Positions 2,376 to 39,081 of a stretch of 47,558 bases of DNA are shown piece after piece. Source of the stretch: Alphaproteobacteria bacterium (GTDB taxonomy: Bacteria > Pseudomonadota > Alphaproteobacteria > Rs-D84 > NBLK01); assembly GCA_016937865.1 (NCBI GenBank), contig JAFGVS010000001.1:1-47558 (forward strand), written 5' to 3'. Below the pieces are notes generated by a model, which saw only the letters and a program-made list of their open reading frames with translations, was not told where the DNA came from and did not search any database. The position numbers and the translations under genes were made by a program. How positions within the stretch are numbered: position 1 is the stretch's first letter; every line of letters starts with the position of its first letter.

Positions 2376-3155
2376 ATGAAATATGGCGGAATAGAAGATT
2401 TAAAGGAAGAAACCTGGCAAAGCCTTTTGAGCAATGCTAATAGTGATTTTATAAGCATGCTCTTGCTATGGTATTCTGGAATTAATATGCGAAGCACATA
2501 TTTTTGGATGTTTTCTCATACAATTGAAAAATATTTAAAATCTTATCTGTTAAAACCACATCCCCTTCATAAAGAAACATTAATTTCTACAAAAGAACTT
2601 AAGTCTATACGTGAAAAAGGACATTCTATAGGCGACTTATGGAATAAATACAAAGAAGCAACAAGAAATACTTCAACAACAAAACCAAAATTAAATGAAG
2701 CATTCGATCAAATCATAAAAGATATTTCCACAATTAAAACAAAAACAAGATACTCTTCTGCATCAGGATCTTCATCGGATGGATTCTTATACTTTTACAT
2801 AGTTTTATGTAGCCTTCTAAGACATCGAATTATTGGGAAAACAGAATATCGAAAATCTTTGTATGGATTAGAAGATTCCTGTTTCTACCCTATGATTTAC
2901 TCTCCAACGAGTGAGGGGTATGGAAAAATAATTGTAAAGAAAATGTTGCATGTAATTTTGGAACATGCAGGTTCTTTTACAAACTTAGGATCTGTTAACA
3001 ACATGAATCTTGAAGAGTATTCAATTTCCAATACAGCTATTGGGGAGAAATTAAAAGATTGTCCTATTTGCAAGGGTTCCTCAACAGATAAATTATCTAT
3101 GATTAAATTTTACAGAGATATTCATCCGGAAGGTTTAAAAAAAGATACAAAATAA
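2376..3155 (+). CDS. Hypothetical protein with an HEPN-like N-terminal helical region; orphan, AT-rich
   Basis: 259-aa ORF. Hand-counted GC of two 60-nt samples is 25-33%, against 38-52% in ftsK samples. Helix pattern FSHTIEKYLKSYLL ... KGHSIGDLWNKY resembles the HEPN fold signature (xxEKxLKxxL ... H-x-L-x-x-L). No clear Rx4-6H motif. C-terminal CPICKG. The functional call is weak. Confidence 0.5.
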   Translation: MKYGGIEDLKEETWQSLLSNANSDFISMLLLWYSGINMRSTYFWMFSHTIEKYLKSYLLKPHPLHKETLISTKELKSIREKGHSIGDLWNKYKEATRNTSTTKPKLNEAFDQIIKDISTIKTKTRYSSASGSSSDGFLYFYIVLCSLLRHRIIGKTEYRKSLYGLEDSCFYPMIYSPTSEGYGKIIVKKMLHVILEHAGSFTNLGSVNNMNLEEYSISNTAIGEKLKDCPICKGSSTDKLSMIKFYRDIHPEGLKKDTK

Positions 3156-3319: not shown

Positions 3320-3853
3320 TTAATAATTTACAGTAATTGTATATCCGGATCCACCAGAATTGGCAGAGGAATATGTTCCGGCCGTTTCTGCTCCGGAAAA
3401 AGTAATTTCCCCAATTACATTAAATGAAGCAAGTCCTGAGGCATCTAAAATTAGTGAGCTTGTGTGTTCATGGCTTCCTGCAGGTATAAAGTAAGGTTCA
3501 AAAGTAATAAGATGGCCTGATCCATCACTTAAGATGCCTGTGGCGCCTAGGTTTATATTAACTCCTGTGTTTGGTGCGCCAGTAAGAGCAATTTGTCCAT
3601 AATGCGTTGTTCCGCTACAAACATACGTTGCAGGGCAGCTTACAAGTCCGCCTGAAAATCTATTTAGTCCAACTGTTTGAGGACCAGTCCCAGGATCTAT
3701 TGCGATAGTTCCGAAGTTAATATTTGCAGAGTTAGTGATTGTTAGTGGATTAGAAAGTTCTGCTTGAGCATGACCTGATCCGGTTGCTGCCATTACGCCT
3801 GAAGCAAAAAAGATGCTCAACGCAAAGGTAGATGATTTAAATAAAGTATTCAT
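3320..3853 (-). CDS. Secreted DUF4402-like putative fimbrial subunit (orphan paralogue of 27318-28873)
   Basis: I start it at the internal ATG at 3853, preceded by GGAG (tttaaaGGAGaaaaatATG). Signal peptide MNTLFKSSTFALSIFFASGVMA|[11 protein letters not shown]. Shares [24 protein letters not shown] and the C-terminal AGTYSS.N.GGSGY.ITVNY with the three tandem genes. Confidence 0.8.
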   Translation of the reverse strand: MNTLFKSSTFALSIFFASGVMAATGSGHAQAELSNPLTITNSANINFGTIAIDPGTGPQTVGLNRFSGGLVSCPATYVCSGTTHYGQIALTGAPNTGVNINLGATGILSDGSGHLITFEPYFIPAGSHEHTSSLILDASGLASFNVIGEITFSGAETAGTYSSANSGGSGYTITVNY

Positions 3854-3891
3854 ATTTTTCTCCTTTAAAAGCGTGTAGAACGCACAGTCAA

Positions 3892-3920
3892 AATATACCA
3901 TAAAATAAGGAAGTGTACAA
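3892..3920 (-). promoter_or_regulatory. Sigma70-like promoter for the orphan subunit gene
   Basis: Minus strand reads TTGTAC (3915-3920), a 17-nt spacer, then TGgTATATT (extended -10; TATATT at 3892-3897). It lies about 40 nt upstream of the ATG. Confidence 0.45.
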
Positions 3921-22363: not shown

Positions 22364-22392
22364 TAAAAAAATCCGCATGATGCGGATTTTTT
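22364..22392. terminator. Bidirectional rho-independent terminator (topA / HAD gene)
   Basis: Palindrome ATCCGCAT-g-ATGCGGAT (22371-22387), flanked by an A-run and a T-run. It overlaps the stop codon of the HAD gene. Confidence 0.7.
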
Positions 22393-23008: not shown

Positions 23009-23479
23009 CTAAAGAATAATAAAAGGTTTGTGAATTTTTTCCAAGAATAGTTTTAAATCATTAGGGGCCAAGACAATTGTCGCGGTATTTATCATAGGAT
23101 GAAATCCTAATTTATTACAACCCATCATATCAAGATCTAATAAACATTCAACCTTATTTTCGATGTCATACATTAAAGAAAAAGGATTGACCGATCCGGG
23201 CTTTACGTTCAATAAATCGTATAAAACATCTGGGGTGCCGAAAGATAAGCGTGACGTCATTAATTTTTTTGACAGCGCCCCAATATCGATTCGCTTTTCC
23301 GCGAGTGTTGATAACAAAAAGCATCGATGCTTGTTCACCAGAAACAGCGTTTTGCAGTGCGCCGCTGGAATGTTAACATTATGTTTTTCTGTATCTTCAC
23401 ACGTAAACAATGCCGGGTGATTGTGTTCCTCGAACACCACCCCCGCATCGTTCAGTAAATCGTATAATTTCTGTTTCAT
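23009..23479 (-). CDS. ProX/YbaK-family aminoacyl-tRNA deacylase-like protein
   Basis: 156 aa with H.HP..FTCE, CKTLFL, RLSFGTPDVLYDLLNVKPGSVNPFSL and GFHPMINTATIVL, matching the stand-alone prolyl-tRNA-editing-domain (ProX) pattern. Confidence 0.75.
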   Translation of the reverse strand: MKQKLYDLLNDAGVVFEEHNHPALFTCEDTEKHNVNIPAAHCKTLFLVNKHRCFLLSTLAEKRIDIGALSKKLMTSRLSFGTPDVLYDLLNVKPGSVNPFSLMYDIENKVECLLDLDMMGCNKLGFHPMINTATIVLAPNDLKLFLEKIHKPFIIL

Positions 23480-23482
23480 GTA

Positions 23483-24550
23483 TTATCTATTTCTTTTTCG
23501 AAGTTCTTTAAGGCCTTCCTCAATATAAGAGACAAAGTCTTTGGTGTCTGCAAAATAGTTTCTGAAAGCATCTTTTATAGATTTTGCATCAGATTTTACA
23601 AGAACAATATCCGCGTCTGGGTTTTCTTTTTCAAGTCTAAAATATTCCTTATTTGCAGCAGATAAAGAGGGCTGTGGCTCCACAATAGATGCAGGAGGTC
23701 CCCCAGGTTGAGAAAAGGTAAGCTTTATTATGAGAATATTTGATTTTATTGCATCAGATTTTTTTATTAGTTTCAAATGTCTAAGTCTAGTTAAAAGATT
23801 CGTTTTCTTATTGATTATAATGAACTCTCTAATTAGGTCTGCATCGGAGAGTTTTGGTTTGCATGATTTTTCATTTTCGTAAACACGAGCAATTATTTCG
23901 CTAGATAAACGGAAAAACTCTTTTTGATCTTCAGATCCTTCTCCAAATTTTGTTCTGTTTTGAGTCATAAAATCTGCAACTTCTACGGCTGTAGCCCAAG
24001 CATGTTGAAAAATAGTTCTATATTGAATTTCAATTCTTAACCCATCCCATTTAGGAGATCTGTCTTTTCCTTTTTTACTTTTGTATTTATAAACATCATG
24101 AATGCCTCTATAGCCACTGTCTTGAGGAGTTTGAATATAATTATACGGATAGGGTTTTTCATCCTGTTTAATTAAAGAATGCAACATTTTTTTAGTTTTA
24201 TGAAGTGAGCTTCTGTAATTAATAAGGTCTTTATAGGATTTAAAAATTAGGCGGCATCCTGCTATGTCGTGCATTCTAGAAAGGGACATACCAGATTGAC
24301 GGTTAGACAGTTTATCAAATATAGTGATTTTTCTTTTCAATCTTTGAGCATAAACAACTTTAATATTGGATTTATTAATTCTGTTTTTTAAAATAGAGGA
24401 CCAAGTGTTTAGCACATGAACATGCGAAGCTCTCCAATTTTCAATAATATCATAATCTTCTCTTGTGGCTGTATTTTCTCTAACATTTTTTCCAGCTAAA
24501 TCGACTCTTTTTTTTGAAAATATCGGGTAAATCTGGAGTCTTTTAGACAT
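23483..24550 (-). CDS. Stand-alone RelA/SpoT-synthetase-domain protein (toxSAS / CapRel-like) with an unassigned C-terminal domain
   Basis: QRLKRKITIFDKL, DIAGCRLIF, DSGYRGIHDVY and RIEIQYRTIFQHAWATAVE form the RelA_SpoT nucleotidyltransferase core. No HD, TGS or ACT domains. About 130 extra C-terminal residues. Hand-counted GC of two 60-nt samples is 30-32%. Confidence 0.8.
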   Translation of the reverse strand: MSKRLQIYPIFSKKRVDLAGKNVRENTATREDYDIIENWRASHVHVLNTWSSILKNRINKSNIKVVYAQRLKRKITIFDKLSNRQSGMSLSRMHDIAGCRLIFKSYKDLINYRSSLHKTKKMLHSLIKQDEKPYPYNYIQTPQDSGYRGIHDVYKYKSKKGKDRSPKWDGLRIEIQYRTIFQHAWATAVEVADFMTQNRTKFGEGSEDQKEFFRLSSEIIARVYENEKSCKPKLSDADLIREFIIINKKTNLLTRLRHLKLIKKSDAIKSNILIIKLTFSQPGGPPASIVEPQPSLSAANKEYFRLEKENPDADIVLVKSDAKSIKDAFRNYFADTKDFVSYIEEGLKELRKRNR

Positions 24551-24567
24551 TTGTTTCCTTTTAATGA

Positions 24568-24579
24568 AATTCGCGAATT
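24568..24579. promoter_or_regulatory. Perfect 12-bp palindrome AATTCGCGAATT upstream of the SAS gene (candidate operator)
   Basis: Exact self-complementary dodecamer located 18-29 nt upstream of the SAS ATG (24550), just beyond its RBS (AAGGAAACAAATG). Confidence 0.3.
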
Positions 24580-24714
24580 ACAAGCGCAGCGAAATTAAAA
24601 CGCAGTGGTGATGGCGAGGGAAAATTGTCGTTTCAGAACGAAGATGTACGTTGGGGTACATCGAATGATGTTCGCAAAACGGCAATTTACACCGCCAAGA
24701 TTAATTTCCCAGAA

Positions 24715-27317: not shown

Positions 27318-27851
27318 ATGAACCTATGTAAAACAGCATTATTTGTAATTATGGCAATCTTCAGCAGCACAAGCACCTTCGCCGCAACGGGGAGTGGAGA
27401 GGCAAAGGCACAACTCACAAATCCTTTGTCCATTGAACAAACAGCATATATCGTAGACTTTGGAACTGTCGCGATTGACCCCTCTGCGGGCACACAAACA
27501 GTAAGCATAACAGCGAGCTCTACACCTGTTCGAACCTGTCCGCCCAGTTATGTGTGCAGTGGGGGGCCTATTAGAGCTGGGAATTTTTTAATTAAAGGAT
27601 TGAAATATACCCCTGTGTATCTAGACATATCGGGGTCAACCGCAATACTAAGTGATGGAGCTGGAAATACATTGGTCTTTGACCCAGATTTCCTTGGACC
27701 GTCAGACACACGCGCGACTTCGTTGGATGGGGCCGGGCGCAAATATGAAAACATAGGCGGTTCTATTACGTTTACCGGGAGCGAGCCTGCTGGAACCTAT
27801 TCATCAAGTAATGCGGGTGGAACAGGATATCAAGTAAATGTGGTCTACTAA
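27318..27851 (+). CDS. Secreted DUF4402-like putative fimbrial subunit 1
   Basis: Signal peptide ..SSTSTFA|ATGSGEAKAQL. DFGTVAIDP, CPPSYVCSGG, LSDGAGN and the C-terminal [21 protein letters not shown]. Confidence 0.8.
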   Translation: MNLCKTALFVIMAIFSSTSTFAATGSGEAKAQLTNPLSIEQTAYIVDFGTVAIDPSAGTQTVSITASSTPVRTCPPSYVCSGGPIRAGNFLIKGLKYTPVYLDISGSTAILSDGAGNTLVFDPDFLGPSDTRATSLDGAGRKYENIGGSITFTGSEPAGTYSSSNAGGTGYQVNVVY

Positions 27852-27864
27852 AAAAGGAAAAGAA

Positions 27865-28365
27865 ATGAAAAAAGTATTTTTTGTATTAACGTTATTATTT
27901 ACATCAAACGCCTTTGCGGCAACAGGATCCGGACATGCACAAACGGAATTAGAAACGCCGCTTAAGGTAACGAGTCTTGCGGATGTTACTTTCCAAACGA
28001 TTGCGATTGACCCATCTGCGGGTCCCCAAGTGTTAACAATGGAAGAATGCCCAGCGACTTATGTGTGCACAGGCCCAAAACTATATGGTTTTTTAGATAT
28101 AAGGGGGGCGCCAAGTACGGTCGTACATGCATCATTAACGGGATCAACCGCAACTCTAAGTGATGGTGCAGGAAATACGATTACATTTGATCCTTTTTTC
28201 AGAGGAGCGCCAAGATATGAAACCCTGAATACAGCACTTAGTGCAGGTGGTGCGTTATCATTAAATGTCGATGGTTTGCTGTATCTAACAGGAAATGAGC
28301 CCGCGGGAACATATTCATCTAAAAACGCCGGTGGATCAGGGTATCAAATCACGGTTAATTACTAA
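27865..28365 (+). CDS. Secreted DUF4402-like putative fimbrial subunit 2
   Basis: Start at the ATG at 27865 (AAAGGAAAAGAAATG). Signal peptide MKKVFFVLTLLFTSNAFA|[27 protein letters not shown] and PAGTYSSKNAGGSGYQITVNY. Confidence 0.8.
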   Translation: MKKVFFVLTLLFTSNAFAATGSGHAQTELETPLKVTSLADVTFQTIAIDPSAGPQVLTMEECPATYVCTGPKLYGFLDIRGAPSTVVHASLTGSTATLSDGAGNTITFDPFFRGAPRYETLNTALSAGGALSLNVDGLLYLTGNEPAGTYSSKNAGGSGYQITVNY

Positions 28366-28375
28366 GGAGAGGGCG

Positions 28376-28873
28376 GTGAAGAAATTATTTTTTATATTCA
28401 CACTATTGGTCTCATCAAATAGTTTTGCGGCAACCGGATCTGGCCATGCCCAGGCAGAGCTCTCAACGCCTTTAAGTATTTCAAATAGTGTACAATTAAA
28501 TTTTGGAACAATTGCGATTGATCCTGGTTCTGGTGGACAAGTGCTTTGGATTGGCATTTCGGATAATATTGCATGTCCTGCAACATATGTTTGTACAGGA
28601 AGTCCGCAAACAGGTCATTTAATTATACAAGGGGCTCCAAGTAGTTTAGTAAATGTAAGTGTGGTATCAAATGCTGTTCTTTCAGATGGCAACGGGAATA
28701 CATTAATTTTTGTGCCAAATATTGGTGGAGGAACAGAAAAAACATTATCAGAAAGTGGTTCATTAGATATCGCCTATAATGGGACAATCAGCTTTACAGG
28801 AAGTGAAGTAATTGGAACATATTCTTCATCTAATGCAGGCGGATCAGGGTTTCAAGTTACCGCAATCTATTAA
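28376..28873 (+). CDS. Secreted DUF4402-like putative fimbrial subunit 3
   Basis: GTG start at 28376, 6 nt after AAGGAG. Signal peptide [18 protein letters not shown]|[36 protein letters not shown] and [19 protein letters not shown]. Confidence 0.75.
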
Positions 28874-31191: not shown

Positions 31192-33678
31192 ATGAAAAAA
31201 ATATTTATTTTATGCAGTGCTTTTGCCGTTTTGTTTATGTTGGCAAGCAGCGTGGATGCACAAACAAGACGATCAGCTCGATCTGCTCGGTCTGCGAGAT
31301 CTGCAGCAACACAAGATGATGTCAATGGGACACAGGTGAGAAGACGTAGAACGCCACAATCAGCTCGATCCCGTAGAACGGCACAATCGGCTCGATCCCA
31401 ATCAGCAGTAGAAACAGAAAACGGTGCCGTAGTACGTTCAGGACGTCAAAGTGGCCGTGTTGGACGAACTGCAATTATCGGAACACCATCATCTTCCGCG
31501 CTTGTGCCAACAGAGGAAGCAGTCTCCTCCGCTGTCACTTCAGAAGAAGTTAAAAAAGAATACGCGGTTGATCTAGAGGCATTAGAAACAGGGGCAAATT
31601 CTGTTAAAGTGTGCCAGTCAAAAATGCTGGACTGTGTTAAAGGTATGCTACCAGAAGAAACGAAAAAATCAGTTGGATTAGGTCTTTGTTACCTATCTGC
31701 AAAACGGTATGGGTTTGAAAACAAAGAAAAAGCATTACGCGATGTTGAAAGAAAACTATTTTCGATAATGGGAAATGCCGGGTTTGCAAAATTAAGTCCA
31801 CAAGAACAAGCGATTTATAAAGGCTTAGATTTGCAGTTCGAATCAGAAAAAAAAGACAATACAAATGGTGATTTTGAAGAAGAAGAAGATTCAATTACAT
31901 CTATGATGGCTGAAATGGATAAACAGATGGCCTCAATTGATGCGGTTGCGGATTATAATGGACGTGAAGCAACACCGAAAGAATTATTCAGCGAAGCCTT
32001 TACATCATGTAAAGCCGTTGTTGATACCTGTGAATCTGTATTGGGCGAAGACTCTTTGCAAAAATTTATTAGAGCGAAATCAGATTTTGCCTGTGGAACA
32101 TACGATAACGCATTACAAGATAAATACAGAAAACAAACATTAATGCTAACGCAAGTAGAAGCGAAGATGAAGGGCGATTATTTAAAAACACGTCGAAAAG
32201 AAATGCTCAGCATGCAAGAAGGGTTCCTTAAAATTGAAGAACAATTGGAAGGATCCATTTGTGGAAAAGGACTACAAGACTGTTTGTATTGTGGTGAAAA
32301 TCAAACGAACGAAGAGGCTTGTTCTATTGACTTAGTGAATAAACTTGAAAGTCAAAAACCCGTTGTTCAAGATCTTTTAGATCAAATTAGTTACGGAGAC
32401 GCTGAACGCGGCGAAACAATCTGGCGTGCGTTTATTCAAAACAAAAAAACGACGATAGACCGATTTGCACGTATGGCAAACTACAGTGCAAAAGAACAGG
32501 CTGTGCGTGGATTGGAAGACGTAACAAAACAATATCGCAAAGAATTTACGAAATGTTTGAACGACGTATGTGGAGACGATCAAATTGCCTGTGCAGACGT
32601 AGATGCAATCAAAGCAGGATTTGATGGATTGCAACGTTCAAAACCAATTACGTATACAATCACAAACACAGAAGGGGAAATTGAAACAAGAACAATGCCT
32701 TTGTCAGAATTTTCATTCGATAAGCTTGTAAATGTGACAGTTGATTTCTCAAAAGCGAATTCAGCATGTCGTGATCGCATTGATTTGTTTGCGAACGAAC
32801 TTCGATTGTTGCAATCAAATCCGAATGTAGATAAATCATTATTGCCTTGGTTTAATGCGGAAGAATATGACGCAGCAAACCCAGAAGAATGGGATGAAAG
32901 TGTAATTCGTAAGTTAACACAATATGCAGACAGTATGTTCCGGAAAACATATGCAGCTGTAAATGCCAAAGCAACACAAAACTTGGATGCAAACAAGTCT
33001 CAATTGTTAGACAACCAATTGGCGTTCTTAGCCAAGCGTGTAGAAGGCTATGAATCGAGCCGTGCGGCGGAACTTCGGATCAGTAATGCAGATAAGGAAA
33101 CAGCGATTGCAATGCGTGAAAAAGATACAGAGGTCTATGAGCGTGATCGTGGAATGGAGGTCGCCCGGGACACAATGGATAAAGAAGTCGCTGTGACTAA
33201 AAATTTAAATGCGGCAGAAATTGATACTTCTGAAGCAACGCTTGAAAAAACCAAAAATTTAAATATAGCAGAAATTGATACTTCTGAAGCAACGCTTGCG
33301 AAAACAAAATCTACAAACCTCGCAGAAAAAGATACTGCTGCTGTTGAAGCAGAAAAAACCTTAAAAGAAAATAAAGACACAAGAAGAGAGCTTGAATTGG
33401 TTGAAATTTGTTATAAGCAGGATATTTCAAGAAAGAAAAGCTGGCGTAAATATGTGAACTATTCATGGAGCGAACCTGTGTGTAAGAAGTTTAAACCTGG
33501 AACAAAAGGGAAATGTATTCCGCAAAACTTCGGTGTGATAAACACAGGTCTTCACAGTATCAGAGCAACCTCCTGTACGACAGCAAACGGCGAAGCCCTT
33601 GCAAGAGAGGCTGATGGAAGCTATGTCGTTCCAGGTGGCGAGGAAAGAGAAGCATCAACAACAACAAGATCAAATTAG
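31192..33678 (+). CDS. Secreted Cys-rich repeat protein of unknown function
   Basis: Signal peptide MKKIFILCSAFAVLFMLASSVDA|Q. Arg/Ser-rich repeat region (RSARSARSARSA, TPQSARSRR/TAQSARSQS). About 20 Cys in the body. 18-aa tandem repeats near the C-terminus. RBS GGAGGAAATTATG, with a terminator downstream. Confidence 0.75.
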   Translation: MKKIFILCSAFAVLFMLASSVDAQTRRSARSARSARSAATQDDVNGTQVRRRRTPQSARSRRTAQSARSQSAVETENGAVVRSGRQSGRVGRTAIIGTPSSSALVPTEEAVSSAVTSEEVKKEYAVDLEALETGANSVKVCQSKMLDCVKGMLPEETKKSVGLGLCYLSAKRYGFENKEKALRDVERKLFSIMGNAGFAKLSPQEQAIYKGLDLQFESEKKDNTNGDFEEEEDSITSMMAEMDKQMASIDAVADYNGREATPKELFSEAFTSCKAVVDTCESVLGEDSLQKFIRAKSDFACGTYDNALQDKYRKQTLMLTQVEAKMKGDYLKTRRKEMLSMQEGFLKIEEQLEGSICGKGLQDCLYCGENQTNEEACSIDLVNKLESQKPVVQDLLDQISYGDAERGETIWRAFIQNKKTTIDRFARMANYSAKEQAVRGLEDVTKQYRKEFTKCLNDVCGDDQIACADVDAIKAGFDGLQRSKPITYTITNTEGEIETRTMPLSEFSFDKLVNVTVDFSKANSACRDRIDLFANELRLLQSNPNVDKSLLPWFNAEEYDAANPEEWDESVIRKLTQYADSMFRKTYAAVNAKATQNLDANKSQLLDNQLAFLAKRVEGYESSRAAELRISNADKETAIAMREKDTEVYERDRGMEVARDTMDKEVAVTKNLNAAEIDTSEATLEKTKNLNIAEIDTSEATLAKTKSTNLAEKDTAAVEAEKTLKENKDTRRELELVEICYKQDISRKKSWRKYVNYSWSEPVCKKFKPGTKGKCIPQNFGVINTGLHSIRATSCTTANGEALAREADGSYVVPGGEEREASTTTRSN
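31267..31404 (+). repeat. Coding Arg-Ser-Ala micro-repeats (9-bp SAR units; 27-bp TxQSARSxx units)
   Basis: cga tca gct / cga tct gct / cgg tct gcg / aga tct gca (31270-31305). acgccacaatcagctcgatcc (31351) versus acggcacaatcggctcgatcc (31378). Confidence 0.8.
33199..33360 (+). repeat. 54-bp (18-aa) tandem coding repeat: two near-identical copies plus one degenerate copy
   Basis: aaaaatttaaatGCGgcagaaattgatacttctgaagcaacgcttg at 33199 recurs at 33253 with a few substitutions (KNLNAAEIDTSEATLEKT / KNLNIAEIDTSEATLAKT / KSTNLAEKDTAAVEAEKT). Confidence 0.8.
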
Positions 33679-33752: not shown

Positions 33753-36700
33753 ATGAAACAGGATCTAATCGTCAAAGCCACGGAAACGCAACAACAAGCC
33801 ACCCATCCACATCAATCATTTTGGGTGTCTGCATCCGCTGGAACCGGGAAAACAAAAGTGCTGGTGGACCGGGTCATCCGATTACTATTGGAAGGCGCAC
33901 TGCCATCTCAAATTCTATGTCTGACATTCACGAAAACCGCTGCAGGTGAAATGATTGAACGTGTGCTCGGCACCCTGAAAAGCTTTATCCATTTGGGGGA
34001 TAACGAGCTCATTGAAAAGCTAAAATCCTTTGCCATCACACCAACTGCGGAAAAACAAAACAAGGCGCGCACACTCTTCGCAAGCGTCCTGGATAACATT
34101 CACACATTAAAGATTCAAACGATTCATGCCTTTTGCCAATCAGTATTGCAAAAATTCCCCATCGAGGCAGATCTTAGTCCATCTTTTGCCATGATGGATG
34201 ACGCCACACGGCAGTTTTATATCCAACAAGCCTATGATCGAATGTTAAAAGAGGCTTTTGCGGTAAACGGCAATCAAGAGCTGCGACGTGCGTTTGAATA
34301 CACGGCTGAAAAAATGACCGCTTTTTCATTTGAAAAACAAAAAGAAAACATTTTAGGGCAATTCCAAAATTTTTCGGCACTATATCACGACCATTCTTTA
34401 GACAAGGTCCGCGCGCTCATCCAAGAAAAATTAAGCTTAACAGAAAAAGAATTATCCAAGACCGAAAATGATTTTTTCGAAGACATGCCTTTAAATGTAT
34501 TGCGTGTCAGCCAAGATGAAAAAGTCATTAAATTATTGCCCAATATTGAAAGCATTCTTCAAAAAGAAAATCCATCGTTCGACGCGTATAAAGATTTATT
34601 TTTAACCCAAAAAGGCACCGTGCGAAAAATACATGAAAAATCGCCAGAGCTCTATCGCGAAGCACAGCGGACAGAAGAGTGGGATGAGCTGTTTAAAACG
34701 CAAACCGTATTCAAAGATACATCCGCACTTCTAACCGTAGCGTACGCTTTTATAGAAGATTATGAAAAAATTAAAAAACAAGCCGGGGTGCTTGATTTTG
34801 ATGACTTGATTATGAAAACGGCACGATTGTTCGATATCAAGACAAATCTGCCATGGATCTTGTATAAAATGGATGGGGAAATCAATCATATTTTGGTGGA
34901 CGAAGCACAAGACACGGCCCCTGTCCAATGGAAAATTGTGGATGCCTTAACCGCTGAATTTTTCACCGAAGGAAAAACAAAAGATAAATTAAAAACACTT
35001 TTTGTGGTGGGGGATAAAAAACAATCAATTTATCGGTTTCAAGGTGCAGATGTAAAGAGTTTTCAATCCTCGTACGAAGCGTTTAAAGAAAAGTTAAGAG
35101 GCCAGAAATATCCACTTACAAAACTGCCCCTGTCGATCTCTTTTCGAACAACGCAAGATGTGTTGGATTTAGTTGATGCCGTCTTTGCGGGGGAGGCAAA
35201 AGGCGTTCGGGAAACAGAGGAAGTATTAAAACATAATTCCGCACGAACGCACACGGGTCGTATCGAGCTTTGGCCTGTTTTGGAAAAAGAAGAAACAGAT
35301 GCAGGGGATGAAGAATTTTTGCGCCCAACGACAGATATACTGTCCAAAAAAACGGTCGAAATGAGGCTCGCGGATAAAATAACGGACCGCATAAAAGAGC
35401 TAATAGAAAGCGCCGTTGTCCTGCCTTCCACAAACAAACCAGTTCAGCCAAAAGATATTTTAATTTTGCTACAAAAACGGCATCCTCTGGCAAAGCCATT
35501 GGCAAAATCCTTAAAGGAGAAAAATATTCCATTTGAAGGGTTGGATCGATTCCAATTAAAGGATGACTTGGCTATTCAAGATTTGCTGGCTTGTGCCAAA
35601 TTTGCGCTCTTTCCGTCCGATGATTTAAACACCGCGGCGCTTTTAAAAAGCCCGCTGTTTAAACTGTCTGAAAACGATATTTTTGACCTGTGTTATGACC
35701 GTGAAGAAAAAACCGTTTATACGCGCATCAGCGAAGTTCAAAATTTTTCAGAACAAAAAGAATTGCTCGATCTTCTGAAAAAAAATCGTCACCAAAGCCC
35801 ATTTGATTTTTTTTCTTTGATTTTGGAAAATTGTGACGGGCGGTATACGCTTCTGCAAAGCTTGGGGCAAAAGCATGCGCAATCCATTGAAGAACTTTTA
35901 AATCTAGCCTTTGATTATAGTAAGAAAAGCGACGGATCGCTCGCGGGTTTCCTGACATACATCACAACCATCAATCCGGCAATTAAGCGAGAGTTCAAAA
36001 AAGATGCGTTAAAAGGCGTCCGCTTGATGAGTGTTCATGGATCCAAAGGCTTGGAGTCACCCATTGTGATTTTGCCGGACACCACGCGGGGATCCAGAGA
36101 CAAAAAAACAATTTTTTTCAACAAAGAAAACATCCCTTTTTCAACAGCCTACAGTGAGACCCGAAATACGTTTCTAAAAGAATTGGTCGAATCTGAAAAG
36201 CAAGAACGGTTTGAAGAAGGACAACGTTTGTTGTATGTGGCTTTGACGCGCGCCAAAGACAGTCTCTTAATTTATGGTGCCGGAAAGCCCAGTGAGGAAT
36301 CTTGGTATACAGCGATTTCAAGCGGGATGGAAAAATGTGACAGCCGTAAGGAAATGCAAGGCGAAGAAGAAATCTGGGTCTATGGCACAACATTTGCAAA
36401 AGCTGGAAACAGTATTATGGAAAAACCAGAAAATAAAAATAGAACACCGCGCCCCAAAGCCCACTTACCAACAGAAAAAGAAATTGAGTGGCCAGAACCT
36501 CAAAATGAAGAGGCTAAGATTGGAACACAGATTCATGCTATTTTAGAAAAACTGACAAAAACAAATCCGGAAGACCGAAAAAGATTTATTGAAAAAGCGG
36601 TACAAAATTTGATTGAAAAAGACTTTTGGCAGGCGGCTTTGGAAAAAGTATGCCAACCGGAATTTGACTTTTTATTTGACGCAAATGTTTTAGGTGAAAA

Positions 36701-36941
36701 AGATATTATAACGCCATCTGGGCAAATTTTGCGTCCGGATCAAATTTGTTTCAAAGGGGAAGAAATTTGGATTATTGATTATAAAACAGATATTCCAAAA
36801 GAAATAGTGCCGGTAGAATACGAAAAACAGTTGATAAAATACATTTATTCTGTCAAAACTATCTTTAGGCAAAAAAAAATACGAGCCTTTATTTTGTGGG
36901 TGAAAAACGCAGAGTTGAAAGAGATTTATGATAGAAGATAA
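33753..36941 (+). CDS. addA: AddA-type double-strand-break repair helicase-nuclease (UvrD family plus C-terminal PD-(D/E)XK)
   Basis: Walker A VSASAGTGKTKVL. ILVDEAQDT. VGDKKQSIYRFQGA. LYVALTRAKDSL. C-terminal nuclease motif RPDQICF..EIWIIDYKTD. Confidence 0.85.
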   Translation: MKQDLIVKATETQQQATHPHQSFWVSASAGTGKTKVLVDRVIRLLLEGALPSQILCLTFTKTAAGEMIERVLGTLKSFIHLGDNELIEKLKSFAITPTAEKQNKARTLFASVLDNIHTLKIQTIHAFCQSVLQKFPIEADLSPSFAMMDDATRQFYIQQAYDRMLKEAFAVNGNQELRRAFEYTAEKMTAFSFEKQKENILGQFQNFSALYHDHSLDKVRALIQEKLSLTEKELSKTENDFFEDMPLNVLRVSQDEKVIKLLPNIESILQKENPSFDAYKDLFLTQKGTVRKIHEKSPELYREAQRTEEWDELFKTQTVFKDTSALLTVAYAFIEDYEKIKKQAGVLDFDDLIMKTARLFDIKTNLPWILYKMDGEINHILVDEAQDTAPVQWKIVDALTAEFFTEGKTKDKLKTLFVVGDKKQSIYRFQGADVKSFQSSYEAFKEKLRGQKYPLTKLPLSISFRTTQDVLDLVDAVFAGEAKGVRETEEVLKHNSARTHTGRIELWPVLEKEETDAGDEEFLRPTTDILSKKTVEMRLADKITDRIKELIESAVVLPSTNKPVQPKDILILLQKRHPLAKPLAKSLKEKNIPFEGLDRFQLKDDLAIQDLLACAKFALFPSDDLNTAALLKSPLFKLSENDIFDLCYDREEKTVYTRISEVQNFSEQKELLDLLKKNRHQSPFDFFSLILENCDGRYTLLQSLGQKHAQSIEELLNLAFDYSKKSDGSLAGFLTYITTINPAIKREFKKDALKGVRLMSVHGSKGLESPIVILPDTTRGSRDKKTIFFNKENIPFSTAYSETRNTFLKELVESEKQERFEEGQRLLYVALTRAKDSLLIYGAGKPSEESWYTAISSGMEKCDSRKEMQGEEEIWVYGTTFAKAGNSIMEKPENKNRTPRPKAHLPTEKEIEWPEPQNEEAKIGTQIHAILEKLTKTNPEDRKRFIEKAVQNLIEKDFWQAALEKVCQPEFDFLFDANVLGEKDIITPSGQILRPDQICFKGEEIWIIDYKTDIPKEIVPVEYEKQLIKYIYSVKTIFRQKKIRAFILWVKNAELKEIYDRR

Positions 36942-39081
36942 GTCCGCACTTGTTCCTGTTGAAAAACTAATTGAGAACATCAAAAAATATATGCCATCTT
37001 TTGATGAGGTTCTTTTACGCACGGCATATGACTATGCCAAAGAACAACATGCGACTCAAATGCGCCACAGTGGCGAACCTTATTTCTCTCATCCAATTGC
37101 CGTTGCTGAAATTTTAATTGAACAACGCCTTGATTTAGACACAATTATCACAGGGTTGTTACATGATGTCTTAGAAGACACGCCTGTTTCAGAAGAAGAG
37201 ATGGAGGCGGTCTTTGGAAAATCAATTATTTTCCTGGTCAAAGGCGTCACAAAACTTGCGAAGATCAAACTAAGATCAGATAAAGTTCACGAGGCGGAAA
37301 ACTTTCGAAAGTTTATTATTGCAGCAGCAACAGACTTACGGGTGCTTGTGGTTAAATTAGCGGATCGTTTGCATAATATGCGTACACTTGGATTCCATCC
37401 CGTTGCAAAAAAACGACACCGTAAATCAATTGAAGTGATGGAAGTATACGCACCTCTAGCCGAGCGTATCGGGATGAACCGGATGAAGGACGAGCTAGAG
37501 TTACTGGCTTTTGAACACATTGAACCCGACGCCTATATGCGAATCCAAAATCAATTATCGAATATTCGTCGGGAAGGAAAAGACCTGCTGGCGCCAATCA
37601 TCCAGGAATTGGAAGACCTTATTTCACAACATGGGGTCAATGCGGTTGTTCAAGGGCGGGAAAAAACAGCACCATCTATATGGCTTAAAATGCAAAGAAA
37701 AGGCCTCTCCTTCGATCGTATTTTTGATATCATTGCGTTCCGCTATATTACAAAAGATGTTACAAATTGTTATCGTATTTTGGGATTGATCCATGGAAAA
37801 TATGCGATGGTTCCGGGGCGTTTTAAAGATTACATCTCTACCCCAAAACCAAATGGTTATCAGTCTATTCATACGACCGTTGTTGGTCCGAAAAACATAC
37901 AAATTGAAATTCAAATCCGAACACAAGACATGCATGATGTGGCGGAATTTGGCGTGGCCGCACATTGGGCGTATAAATCAAGTTCAAAAATGGATGAAAA
38001 ACCAAAACTCTGGCTCAGCAGCTTAGTTGAATCAATCCAAAGTACCGAAGACATTGACGAGCTCTTGGAACATACAAAATTAGCAGGTTTCAACGATGCT
38101 GTTTTTTGTTTCTCGCCAGGCGGAGACCTAATCGATTTGCCTTATGGCGCAACGGCTTTGGATTTCGCATATGCGATTCATTCAGACATTGGAAACACAT
38201 GTATTGGGGCGAAAGTAAATCGTAAAATCGTCAGCATTTCAACACAGCTCAAGACAGGAGATCAAGTCGAAGTCCTAACATCAAAAACACAAGAGCCAAG
38301 TCAAGAATGGCTGTCTTACGTGCGAACCAGTAAGGCTAAAACCTATATCCGTCGATATTTAAGACAACAAAAATATGAAGACATGGTGGTCTTGGGGCGT
38401 CAAATTTTAAAGTTAGCCTTCGAACAGGTAAATTTAAAATTCAAAGAAAAAGACCTCATTAAAGTTTTGCCGGTGATCAGTGAAGAAACATTGGAAGATG
38501 TCTATTCACAAGTTGGTGAAGGATTACGCACCGCAGAATCCATTCTATTTCTAATTCATCCAGAGGCCAACAAAGCAGACCGAAAAAAACCAATTATTGA
38601 ACTAGATAGTTTAGACGGGAAAGAAAAAAAACAAAGACCGGTTTCTGGGACATTCTTTTCAGGGATCGCCGTCAAATTTGCAGGCTGTTGTCACCCTTTA
38701 CCAGGCGATGCAGTCGTTGGGGTAATCCATACGGGGGCCGGAATTACGGTCCACAAAATCGGATGTCGTGAAGCAAAAAAATGGGAAAGAGACCACTCGC
38801 ATAAAATGATTGAAATTCGATGGGATGCCTTGATGAAAGAAACCGACATTTTCTTTGGGCAAATCAAAGTAATGTCTGACTATAAGCAAGGCTCTTTGAA
38901 TACGATTACACAAACTTTGGCCACACAAAAAATGCGACTACATGATATTCATGTGTTATCTCGTTCTTCAAATTTTATTGAGTTTTTAATTGATGTTGAA
39001 GTAAAAGATAGACATGACCTTCAAAACTTAATTAACATACTTCGAACCATGGACGATGTCGTCAGTGTCGAACGTGTCTAA
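36928..39081 (+). CDS. spoT: Bifunctional (p)ppGpp synthetase/hydrolase (long RSH)
   Basis: HD hydrolase (RHSGEPYFSHP...LLHDVLEDT). Synthetase core (GREKTAPSIWLKM, GYQSIHTTV, EIQIRTQDMHDVAEFGVAAHWAYK). TGS (VFCFSPGGDLIDLPYGATALDFAY). C-terminal ACT-like domain. Overlaps the addA 3' end by 14 nt. Confidence 0.93.
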   Translation: MIEDKSALVPVEKLIENIKKYMPSFDEVLLRTAYDYAKEQHATQMRHSGEPYFSHPIAVAEILIEQRLDLDTIITGLLHDVLEDTPVSEEEMEAVFGKSIIFLVKGVTKLAKIKLRSDKVHEAENFRKFIIAAATDLRVLVVKLADRLHNMRTLGFHPVAKKRHRKSIEVMEVYAPLAERIGMNRMKDELELLAFEHIEPDAYMRIQNQLSNIRREGKDLLAPIIQELEDLISQHGVNAVVQGREKTAPSIWLKMQRKGLSFDRIFDIIAFRYITKDVTNCYRILGLIHGKYAMVPGRFKDYISTPKPNGYQSIHTTVVGPKNIQIEIQIRTQDMHDVAEFGVAAHWAYKSSSKMDEKPKLWLSSLVESIQSTEDIDELLEHTKLAGFNDAVFCFSPGGDLIDLPYGATALDFAYAIHSDIGNTCIGAKVNRKIVSISTQLKTGDQVEVLTSKTQEPSQEWLSYVRTSKAKTYIRRYLRQQKYEDMVVLGRQILKLAFEQVNLKFKEKDLIKVLPVISEETLEDVYSQVGEGLRTAESILFLIHPEANKADRKKPIIELDSLDGKEKKQRPVSGTFFSGIAVKFAGCCHPLPGDAVVGVIHTGAGITVHKIGCREAKKWERDHSHKMIEIRWDALMKETDIFFGQIKVMSDYKQGSLNTITQTLATQKMRLHDIHVLSRSSNFIEFLIDVEVKDRHDLQNLINILRTMDDVVSVERV

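Follow-up and report, generated by a model that had tools for sequence, protein, structure and literature searches.

The gene at 23483..24550 (-) in contig JAFGVS010000001.1 (assembly GCA_016937865.1, from an uncultured alphaproteobacterium) raises the question of what a stand-alone RelA/SpoT-type synthetase is doing in a genome that also encodes a complete long RelA/SpoT homologue (RSH). A preliminary description of this DNA had read it as a fused, CapRel-like abortive-infection gene acquired horizontally in an alphaproteobacterial background or, alternatively, as a new toxSAS subtype. Family membership, fold and residue conservation were observed directly in the present analysis, and the protein belongs to the known CapRel family as a complete, though divergent, member; the gene is probably a fused CapRel-type toxSAS toxin-antitoxin, most likely serving in phage defence by abortive infection. 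We refer throughout to the whole 47,558-nt stretch that was analysed as the window. The open reading frame (ORF) is complete and encodes 355 residues, beginning at an ATG and ending at a TAA at 23483-23485 on the minus strand, and its assignment draws on the ORF list, PADLOC, phmmer, a family profile and Foldseek. Every RelA_SpoT core motif quoted in the preliminary description is present in its translation (QRLKRKITIFDKL, DIAGCRLIF, DSGYRGIHDVY and RIEIQYRTIFQHAWATAVE), and the Pfam search which that description had recommended finds RelA_SpoT (PF04607) as the only domain, at residues 69-187 (23990-24346 (-), E=6.5e-14), with no HD, TGS or ACT domain in the 355-aa protein, as had been stated. 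The long RSH to which it had also pointed, spoT at 36928-39081, is indeed complete, containing HD_4, RelA_SpoT, TGS, AH_RIS and ACT, and the CapRel-type synthetase is therefore an extra copy.

The protein is matched by the PADLOC model PDC-S33, an unnamed candidate single-gene defence family, which covers residues 8-348 of 355 with 315 bits (E=1.4e-94). The same model matches residues 15-367 of CapRel-SJ46, rebuilt from a printed alignment for this search, with E=1.9e-85, and PDC-S33 is therefore the CapRel family; the name 'PDC-S33' appeared in no paper in a full-text literature search, itself incomplete. In direct comparisons with CapRel-SJ46 (PDB 7ZTB/9ERV), phmmer aligned residues 11-344 with 15-367 (E=6e-28) and BLASTP gave 27% identity (E=7e-32), while a family profile built from 44 relatives matched 7ZTB over its full length (E=5e-51) and the next solved RSH, RelQ/YjbM, with 1.9e-12 and in the N-terminal domain only. 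The function-unknown family phrog_4773 matches the protein over its full length (E=2.8e-65), and in a set of 50,697 phage records phage SJ46 ranks first (E=2e-24, 94% coverage), mycobacterial PhRel-type proteins reaching only E=0.03, on the catalytic core. This ranking by score strongly favours CapRel over PhRel and other small alarmone synthetases. The fused CapRel-like identity originally proposed is as such upheld by sequence, profile and fold homology to CapRel-SJ46 along its whole length, and the alternative of a new toxSAS subtype is not supported, the protein falling by score within CapRel.

Three other placements were considered and rejected. A long RSH is not indicated, since TIGR00691 gives 28.3 bits against a cutoff of 499 and RelA_SpoT is the sole domain found. 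A PhRel-type bicistronic toxSAS does not fit a protein in which the antitoxin-homologous region is fused within the ORF, and the downstream gene is a YbaK-like core gene that has no relation to the family. It was also considered that the gene might encode a housekeeping small alarmone synthetase of the RelQ, RelP or RelV kind that adds (p)ppGpp capacity beside SpoT, as might be suggested by a RelA_SpoT domain unaccompanied by a hydrolase domain and by weak matches to RelQ and RelP structures on the catalytic core. However, the RelQ equivalog model (NCBIfam GTPPhKinYjbM) reaches 33.5 bits where its cutoff is 320, the solved small alarmone synthetases match the N-terminal half only and fall some 40 orders of magnitude short of CapRel, the protein carries a C-terminal domain of CapRel type with 155 residues, and the gene has foreign composition and lies in a variable slot, conserved synteny across the lineage not having been seen. 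A housekeeping role is exceedingly unlikely.

It has been shown for CapRel-SJ46 that the G-loop tyrosine Y155 is required for substrate binding, with Y155A abolishing defence, that R79 and R116 coordinate ATP, that Y352 and Y355 in the C-terminal hinge form a YXXY neutralisation motif, and that substitutions at the interface residues A77, V338, L339, A341 and A351 produce a constitutively toxic protein (PMC9712102). These residues have counterparts in the window protein. In the active site, Y147 (24110..24112 (-)), R70 and R100 align with Y155, R79 and R116 respectively and are invariant in 44 of 44 relatives; at the interface, A68 corresponds to A77, I315, V316 and V318 to V338, L339 and A341, and A328 to A351; and F329 and Y332 occupy the positions of Y352 and Y355. 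All of the equivalents of the SJ46 functional residues are invariant or conservatively replaced among the 44 relatives. The toxSYNTH, or RelA/SpoT nucleotidyltransferase, toxin domain (residues 1-200, 23951..24550 (-)) was delimited from PF04607 and from the invariant Syn motifs Q69-R70-x-K72-R73, D95-x-A-G-C-R100, G146-Y147-R148, E174-x-Q176-x-R178-T179 and H183-x-W185, and all 48 family-invariant positions are kept. The neutralisation motif, Y352-P-N-Y355 in CapRel-SJ46, aligns with F329-R-N-Y332 at 23555..23566 (-). Within the family N331, Y332 and F333 are invariant and position 329 is tyrosine in 23 and phenylalanine in 21 of the 44 relatives, so that FRNY is a normal variant. Conservation is unevenly distributed along the protein, the majority-residue fraction being 0.8-0.94 in the catalytic motifs and falling to its lowest level, 0.27-0.47 per 10-residue block, in residues 261-300, which form the first half of the pseudo-zinc-finger domain. 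In CapRel the region that binds the trigger is likewise the least conserved, which has been read as the signature of an arms race (PMC9712102).

An AlphaFold2 (AF2) model built with the family alignment had a pLDDT of 89.3 and a pTM of 0.85, the latter indicating a confidently predicted domain arrangement. When this model was compared with the PDB by Foldseek, as the preliminary description had proposed, CapRel-SJ46 chains were the top three matches (E=1.5e-19, TM 0.66-0.68, 360 columns), and generic small alarmone synthetases covered the N-terminal half only, with a TMq of about 0.4. Full-length matches may, however, be carried by the catalytic domain, and the C-terminal domain (CTD) was therefore examined separately. 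A CTD-only profile matched the CTD of CapRel-SJ46 with E=8e-5 at PDB scale (26 bits, against 7.7 bits for the best of 500 shuffles), the signal being confined to residues 295-355, a piece which by itself matched the SJ46 C-terminus with E=1.7e-4 at PDB scale. An AlphaFold model of the CTD alone (pLDDT 85.8) had CapRel-SJ46 chains as its sole PDB matches below E=0.01, the best at E=2.6e-4 with TMq 0.55 and the next protein at E=0.39. Secondary structure assigned by DSSP to the AF2 model comprises helices at residues 207-225, 236-250 and 252-257, strands at 272-279 and 286-293, a helix at 296-309, a strand at 314-319 and a helix at 325-354, and the elements of the linker helices and of the pseudo-zinc-finger recur in the domain-only model. 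Residues 207-257 (23780..23932 (-)) would correspond to helices alpha7-alpha9 joining the toxin domain to the pseudo-zinc-finger; residues 272-319 (23594..23737 (-)) would form the pseudo-zinc-finger core of the sensor and antitoxin, as judged by model topology and by the CTD-only model search; and residues 325-354 (23489..23578 (-)), from the same DSSP assignment, would form the C-terminal anchor helix bearing the FxxY motif. There are no cysteines in residues 258-325. In CapRel-SJ46, too, linker helices and a C-terminal anchor helix enclose a pseudo-zinc-finger that lacks zinc-binding cysteines and consists of an antiparallel sheet of three strands with a helix between the last two (PMC9712102). 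The CTD profile and the CTD-only model together assign residues 200-355 of the window protein as the CapRel antitoxin and sensor domain with a predicted pseudo-zinc-finger architecture, which replaces the view that about 130 C-terminal residues were unassigned.

The CTD was also searched for among 1.84 billion proteins, in which this domain occurs almost exclusively at positions of about 190-350 of proteins of 330-395 aa. Short matches that might have represented stand-alone CTD antitoxin homologues were rejected, as they resemble fragments of fused ORFs and therefore give no independent support. The same search returned a protein of 1,173 aa (P0170) with CapRel-type residues 1-340, including AFKNYFSD, followed by an extension of about 830 residues that opens with 'FYSYAHEDKSF', a motif judged by eye to be TIR-like; this is an unusual architecture for a CapRel.

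For the mode of action of the window protein, toxicity, a tRNA substrate, autoinhibition, a phage-protein trigger and an abortive outcome would all be expected from homology to CapRel-SJ46. Residues 1-200 would act as a RelA/SpoT-type pyrophosphokinase, the toxSYNTH toxin domain, and residues 200-355 would supply three linker helices, a cysteine-less pseudo-zinc-finger with the order strand-strand-helix-strand and a terminal helix carrying FRNY. In the resting state the C-terminal domain would be folded onto the toxSYNTH sheet, with the aromatic FRNY motif placed between R70 and R100 so as to block the adenine (ATP) site. On infection a phage protein would bind the hypervariable pseudo-zinc-finger and hold the enzyme open, and the open enzyme would use ATP to pyrophosphorylate tRNA at its 3' CCA end, such that translation would stop and the infected cell would yield no phage. 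In the CapRels that have been characterised, the trigger is the major capsid protein or another phage protein. The resting and open states, toxicity of the N-terminal domain and its neutralisation by the C-terminal domain, activation through direct binding of a phage protein, tRNA pyrophosphorylation and abortive infection together constitute the model established for CapRel-SJ46 (PMC9712102), and the original proposal of an abortive-infection gene of the CapRel kind is supported as a reading in which function is assigned by homology.

A protein with the CapRel fold could nevertheless have another role or another chemistry, either as a selfish or stress-responsive toxin-antitoxin without anti-phage function or as a maker of (p)ppApp or (p)ppGpp. 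Identity to CapRel-SJ46, from which substrate and trigger are predicted, is only 27%, the chemistry of toxSAS enzymes is known to vary between (p)ppApp synthesis and tRNA pyrophosphorylation (PMC9712102), and the gene lies amid housekeeping genes, away from any other defence gene. Set against this, the CapRel subfamily has been described as inhibiting translation by modifying tRNA (PMC9712102), the active-site and G-loop residues match those of SJ46, a hypervariable sensor beside a conserved core is the signature that a host-phage arms race would be expected to leave, and many relatives are carried by viral and prophage contigs and form a PHROG. We regard such a different role as unlikely and retain phage defence by a fused CapRel toxin-antitoxin as the preferred interpretation.

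The composition of the CapRel gene sets it apart from most of the window, as had been suggested on the basis of two 60-nt samples (31.7% and 30.0% GC) that were taken to mark a compositional island of 30-32% GC. Over the whole gene the GC content is 32.1%, compared with 40.4% in the window as a whole, and a value this low or lower occurs in only 0.34% of 1068-bp windows. At third codon positions the GC content (GC3) is 22.5%, and none of the 34 ORFs has a lower one; when amino-acid composition is controlled for, synonymous GC3 is 0.205 where 0.323 would be expected (z=-4.9), a deviation exceeded by only one other ORF. On both sides the low-GC tract has a sharp end, at about 24600 and at the start codon of the ybaK-like gene, and upstream the GC content has returned to the host level (48%) in 24600-24699, within about 50 nt of the ATG. 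Whole-gene GC, GC3 and codon usage are all deviant, although the gene is not unique in this respect. The nearest homologue has an identity of only 55%, and the relatives are spread over diverse phyla. Deviant composition together with a different gene in the same slot of a relative, described below, supports the proposed horizontal acquisition, most likely as a single-gene insertion of about 1.1 kb between mrcA and the ybaK-like/HAD gene pair.

Two further ORFs of the window are noted for their composition. The strongest synonymous-GC3 deviation (z=-5.1) belongs to an 828-aa ORF at 31192-33678 (+) that has no Pfam or PADLOC match and lies directly upstream of a UvrD-helicase/PD-(D/E)XK protein (33753-36941), for which reason it is probably a divergent AddB-like partner of that protein; low GC3 in this genome is therefore not confined to obviously foreign genes. 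The part of the window that is lowest in GC contains a 259-aa ORF at 2376-3155 (+) (GC 30.6%, GC3 23.5%, synonymous GC3 z=-4.4), which matches nothing in Pfam, PADLOC or PHROGs and is a candidate second foreign gene.

The genes of the window are of housekeeping type, comprising clpP, clpX, cmk, recJ, era, topA, HAD and the ybaK-like gene before the CapRel gene and mrcA, three DUF4402 genes, xseA, tsaD, addAB-like genes, spoT, pth, gltX and grpE after it. No other defence system was found in the window by PADLOC, matches to GajB and LeoA being rejected as generic UvrD-helicase and GTPase matches in the AddA-like and Era proteins. Upstream of the CapRel gene, the intergenic region 24551..24714 (-) was characterised by sequence, a terminator scan and a 100-nt GC profile; it contains a ribosome-binding site, AAGGA at 24556-24560, 5 nt ahead of the ATG, and a terminator-like hairpin at 24643-24662 that follows mrcA. 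As previously reported, no antitoxin-sized ORF flanks the gene: there is no ORF of at least 40 aa that could be an antitoxin partner and no conserved small ORF beside it. Between the convergent topA and HAD genes lies a perfect bidirectional terminator-like hairpin with a 12-bp stem (AAAAAATCCGCAT...ATGCGGATTTTTT, 22366-22392), which closes the minus-strand gene string mrcA-CapRel-ybaK-HAD. Three tandem, partly overlapping DUF4402 paralogues with about 45% mutual identity adjoin mrcA (27318-28873 (+)), a fourth copy lies 24 kb away (3320-3901 (-)), and several of the copies have low GC3.

The right-hand edge of the variable slot is formed by the ybaK-like gene at 23009..23479 (-), which encodes a protein with a YbaK/ProX-type aminoacyl-tRNA editing domain (Pfam tRNA_edit, E=2.2e-21) and was the proX-like gene that the preliminary description excepted when it stated that no other antitoxin-sized ORF flanked the synthetase. 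Between the stop codon of the CapRel gene and the start codon of the ybaK-like gene, on the same strand, lie 3 nt (TAA-TAC-ATG, junction 23483-23479), and no canonical ribosome-binding site was seen at this junction. Expression of the ybaK-like gene therefore probably relies on the inserted gene, by read-through or coupling, or on a promoter-like site at 23550-23522 that lies inside the 3' end of the CapRel gene. Relatives anchored on TopA were sought among 185k species genomes, where the best TopA identity was 48%, to Rickettsiales and Alphaproteobacteria metagenome-assembled genomes, consistent with the alphaproteobacterial background first proposed; the neighbourhood is kept in none of these relatives, and one locus with 100% identity (L081) is the same genome and as such no independent relative. 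A search with the ybaK-like gene found a 1,265-bp metagenomic contig (Logan SRR31444222_1136373, here L242) that keeps the ybaK-like and HAD genes at 81% amino-acid and 78% nucleotide identity. Its nucleotide homology to the window begins exactly at the ybaK-like ATG, and the equivalent of window positions 23480 onward (L242:3-371) is occupied by an AT-rich ORF with no relation to CapRel or mrcA, present on the contig as a C-terminal fragment of 122 aa (31% GC, 20% GC3) that overlaps the ybaK-like ATG by 4 nt and has no match in Pfam, NCBIfam, PADLOC, PHROGs, the PDB, plasmids or any fetched locus. Since homology stops at the ybaK-like ATG and another gene lies upstream of it, the CapRel gene occupies a variable slot, and the presence of different foreign-looking cargo in two related genomes supports both horizontal acquisition and the status of the ybaK-like gene as a core neighbour.

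These data also bear on a two-gene module in which the YbaK/ProX-like protein, by binding the CCA ends of aminoacyl-tRNA, would serve as antidote or modulator of tRNA modification by CapRel. The 3-nt gap on one strand makes co-transcription probable, and both proteins plausibly act at the tRNA 3' end, given the tRNA_edit domain. However, a YbaK-like gene was found beside none of the 160 fetched CapRel-family loci, the ybaK-like/HAD pair persists in L242 without CapRel and with another gene upstream, the ybaK-like gene has a host-like GC3 (41% against 22.5%), and CapRel bears its own antitoxin domain. A module of this kind is very unlikely, and the proX-like gene of the earlier remark is a core neighbour that is conserved. 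In this uncultured lineage of alphaproteobacteria the position upstream of the ybaK-like ATG could in addition be a hotspot that takes up cargo with ORF precision, as unrelated AT-rich genes abut or overlap that ATG in two genomes and integrase, repeat and tRNA hallmarks are missing, but we consider this rather unlikely; in that case the L242 slot gene could be an undescribed defence gene and the mechanism of swapping could be unusual. In a weaker form of the same proposal, whichever cargo occupies the slot may be transcriptionally coupled to the tRNA-editing gene.

Across the CapRel family as a whole there were more than 3,300 matches, nearly all of 340-390 aa and with 96-99% coverage. Relatives were from Alphaproteobacteria, Cyanobacteria, Acidobacteriota and others, and 86 IMG/VR viral contigs carried them. 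No conserved partner gene was found across the family loci examined: the 265 neighbouring ORFs of 152 loci fell into 222 clusters, the largest having nine members, and in the absence of a recurrent neighbour the CapRel system is best regarded as self-contained. Sampled members on long contigs are, like the window gene, lone genes amid unrelated housekeeping genes.

Several observations weigh against the identification of this gene as a horizontally acquired CapRel defence gene. Identity to the characterised CapRel-SJ46 is only 27%, and the first tyrosine of the YXXY motif is a phenylalanine. A single-sequence phmmer search with residues 200-355 found no CapRel match in the PDB, and even a profile detected no sequence similarity to SJ46 in the hairpin (258-322) or the linker helices, for which reason the sensing surface is a structural prediction only. 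Superposition of the full model on the open crystal form gave a root-mean-square deviation of 9.4 A over 360 columns, a value which would fit a different domain arrangement without proving one. Synonymous GC3 has a z below -3.7 in five of the 34 ORFs, that is in four others, one of them probably housekeeping, and because these four share the low GC3, composition by itself is weak evidence of transfer. A strict empty site, with mrcA directly beside the ybaK-like gene, was not found, and the check for this junction that had been proposed gave no such case in the relatives examined; the best relative of the mrcA C-terminus (65%), the sole mrcA relative with downstream sequence, has rplS-mlaD-DUF2155 there. 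Mobile-element marks are likewise missing from the window, which has no integrase or transposase, flanking direct repeats, tRNA genes or Rfam matches, and promoter prediction for the minus strand of 24551..24714 gave no sigma-70-like call. The want of a recognisable promoter, and of any mobile-element context for a lone gene, might be taken to suggest that the gene is an inactive relic of a defence gene, but the ORF is intact and of family-typical length, retains 48 of 48 family-invariant positions, is preceded by a correctly spaced ribosome-binding site and gives a model that is confident throughout. We consider a relic highly unlikely, and a complete CapRel-type gene remains the preferred interpretation.

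CapRel has already been described as the most widely distributed of the toxSAS subfamilies, and as such its presence here will not surprise the specialist. The finding does extend the CapRel immunity module, which unites toxin, antitoxin and phage sensor in a single protein, to an uncultured and deep-branching alphaproteobacterium, and it brings a gain in annotation, as both the unnamed PDC-S33 and the function-unknown phrog_4773 are CapRel. The window protein belongs to a clade of over 100 members (45-55% identity) whose sensor hairpins have diverged beyond sequence recognition, and this clade is therefore a natural set in which to look for CapRel triggers other than enterobacterial capsids.

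Among known systems, the small alarmone synthetases RelQ and RelP (PDB 5DEC, 6FGK and 6EWZ) have in common with the window protein the RelA/SpoT nucleotidyltransferase core (Foldseek E of about 1e-7, N-terminal half only), but as single-domain proteins of about 200-250 aa they have no C-terminal antitoxin or sensor domain, make (p)ppGpp and are not toxic. PhRel/ATphRel of Mycobacterium phage Phrann (gp29/gp30) represents a toxSAS subfamily that is sister to CapRel and has a homologous antitoxin (Jimmy et al. 2020, PMC7229694). The toxSYNTH toxins are related, the PhRel antitoxin is homologous to the CapRel CTD and the role of PhRel is prophage-encoded defence, but PhRel is bicistronic with a separate antitoxin gene, in contrast to the single ORF without a partner in the window. 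The closest of the characterised systems is CapRel-SJ46 of Salmonella phage SJ46, a fused CapRel toxSAS toxin-antitoxin (Zhang et al. 2022, PMC9712102). The two proteins are similar in length (355 and 373 aa) and both hold two domains in one ORF; they share a cysteine-less strand-strand-helix-strand pseudo-zinc-finger, predicted in the case of the window protein, with the sensor as the least conserved part, and both have the xxNY(F) neutralisation motif, the G-loop tyrosine and both ATP-coordinating arginines. The window protein differs in lacking a 7-residue insertion after the first catalytic helix and in having phenylalanine for the first tyrosine of YXXY, and it is encoded, in an uncultured alphaproteobacterium, by a lone chromosomal gene amid housekeeping genes and not by a gene of a prophage. 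Since the sensor hairpins of the two have no detectable sequence similarity, the trigger specificity of the window protein surely differs from that of CapRel-SJ46.

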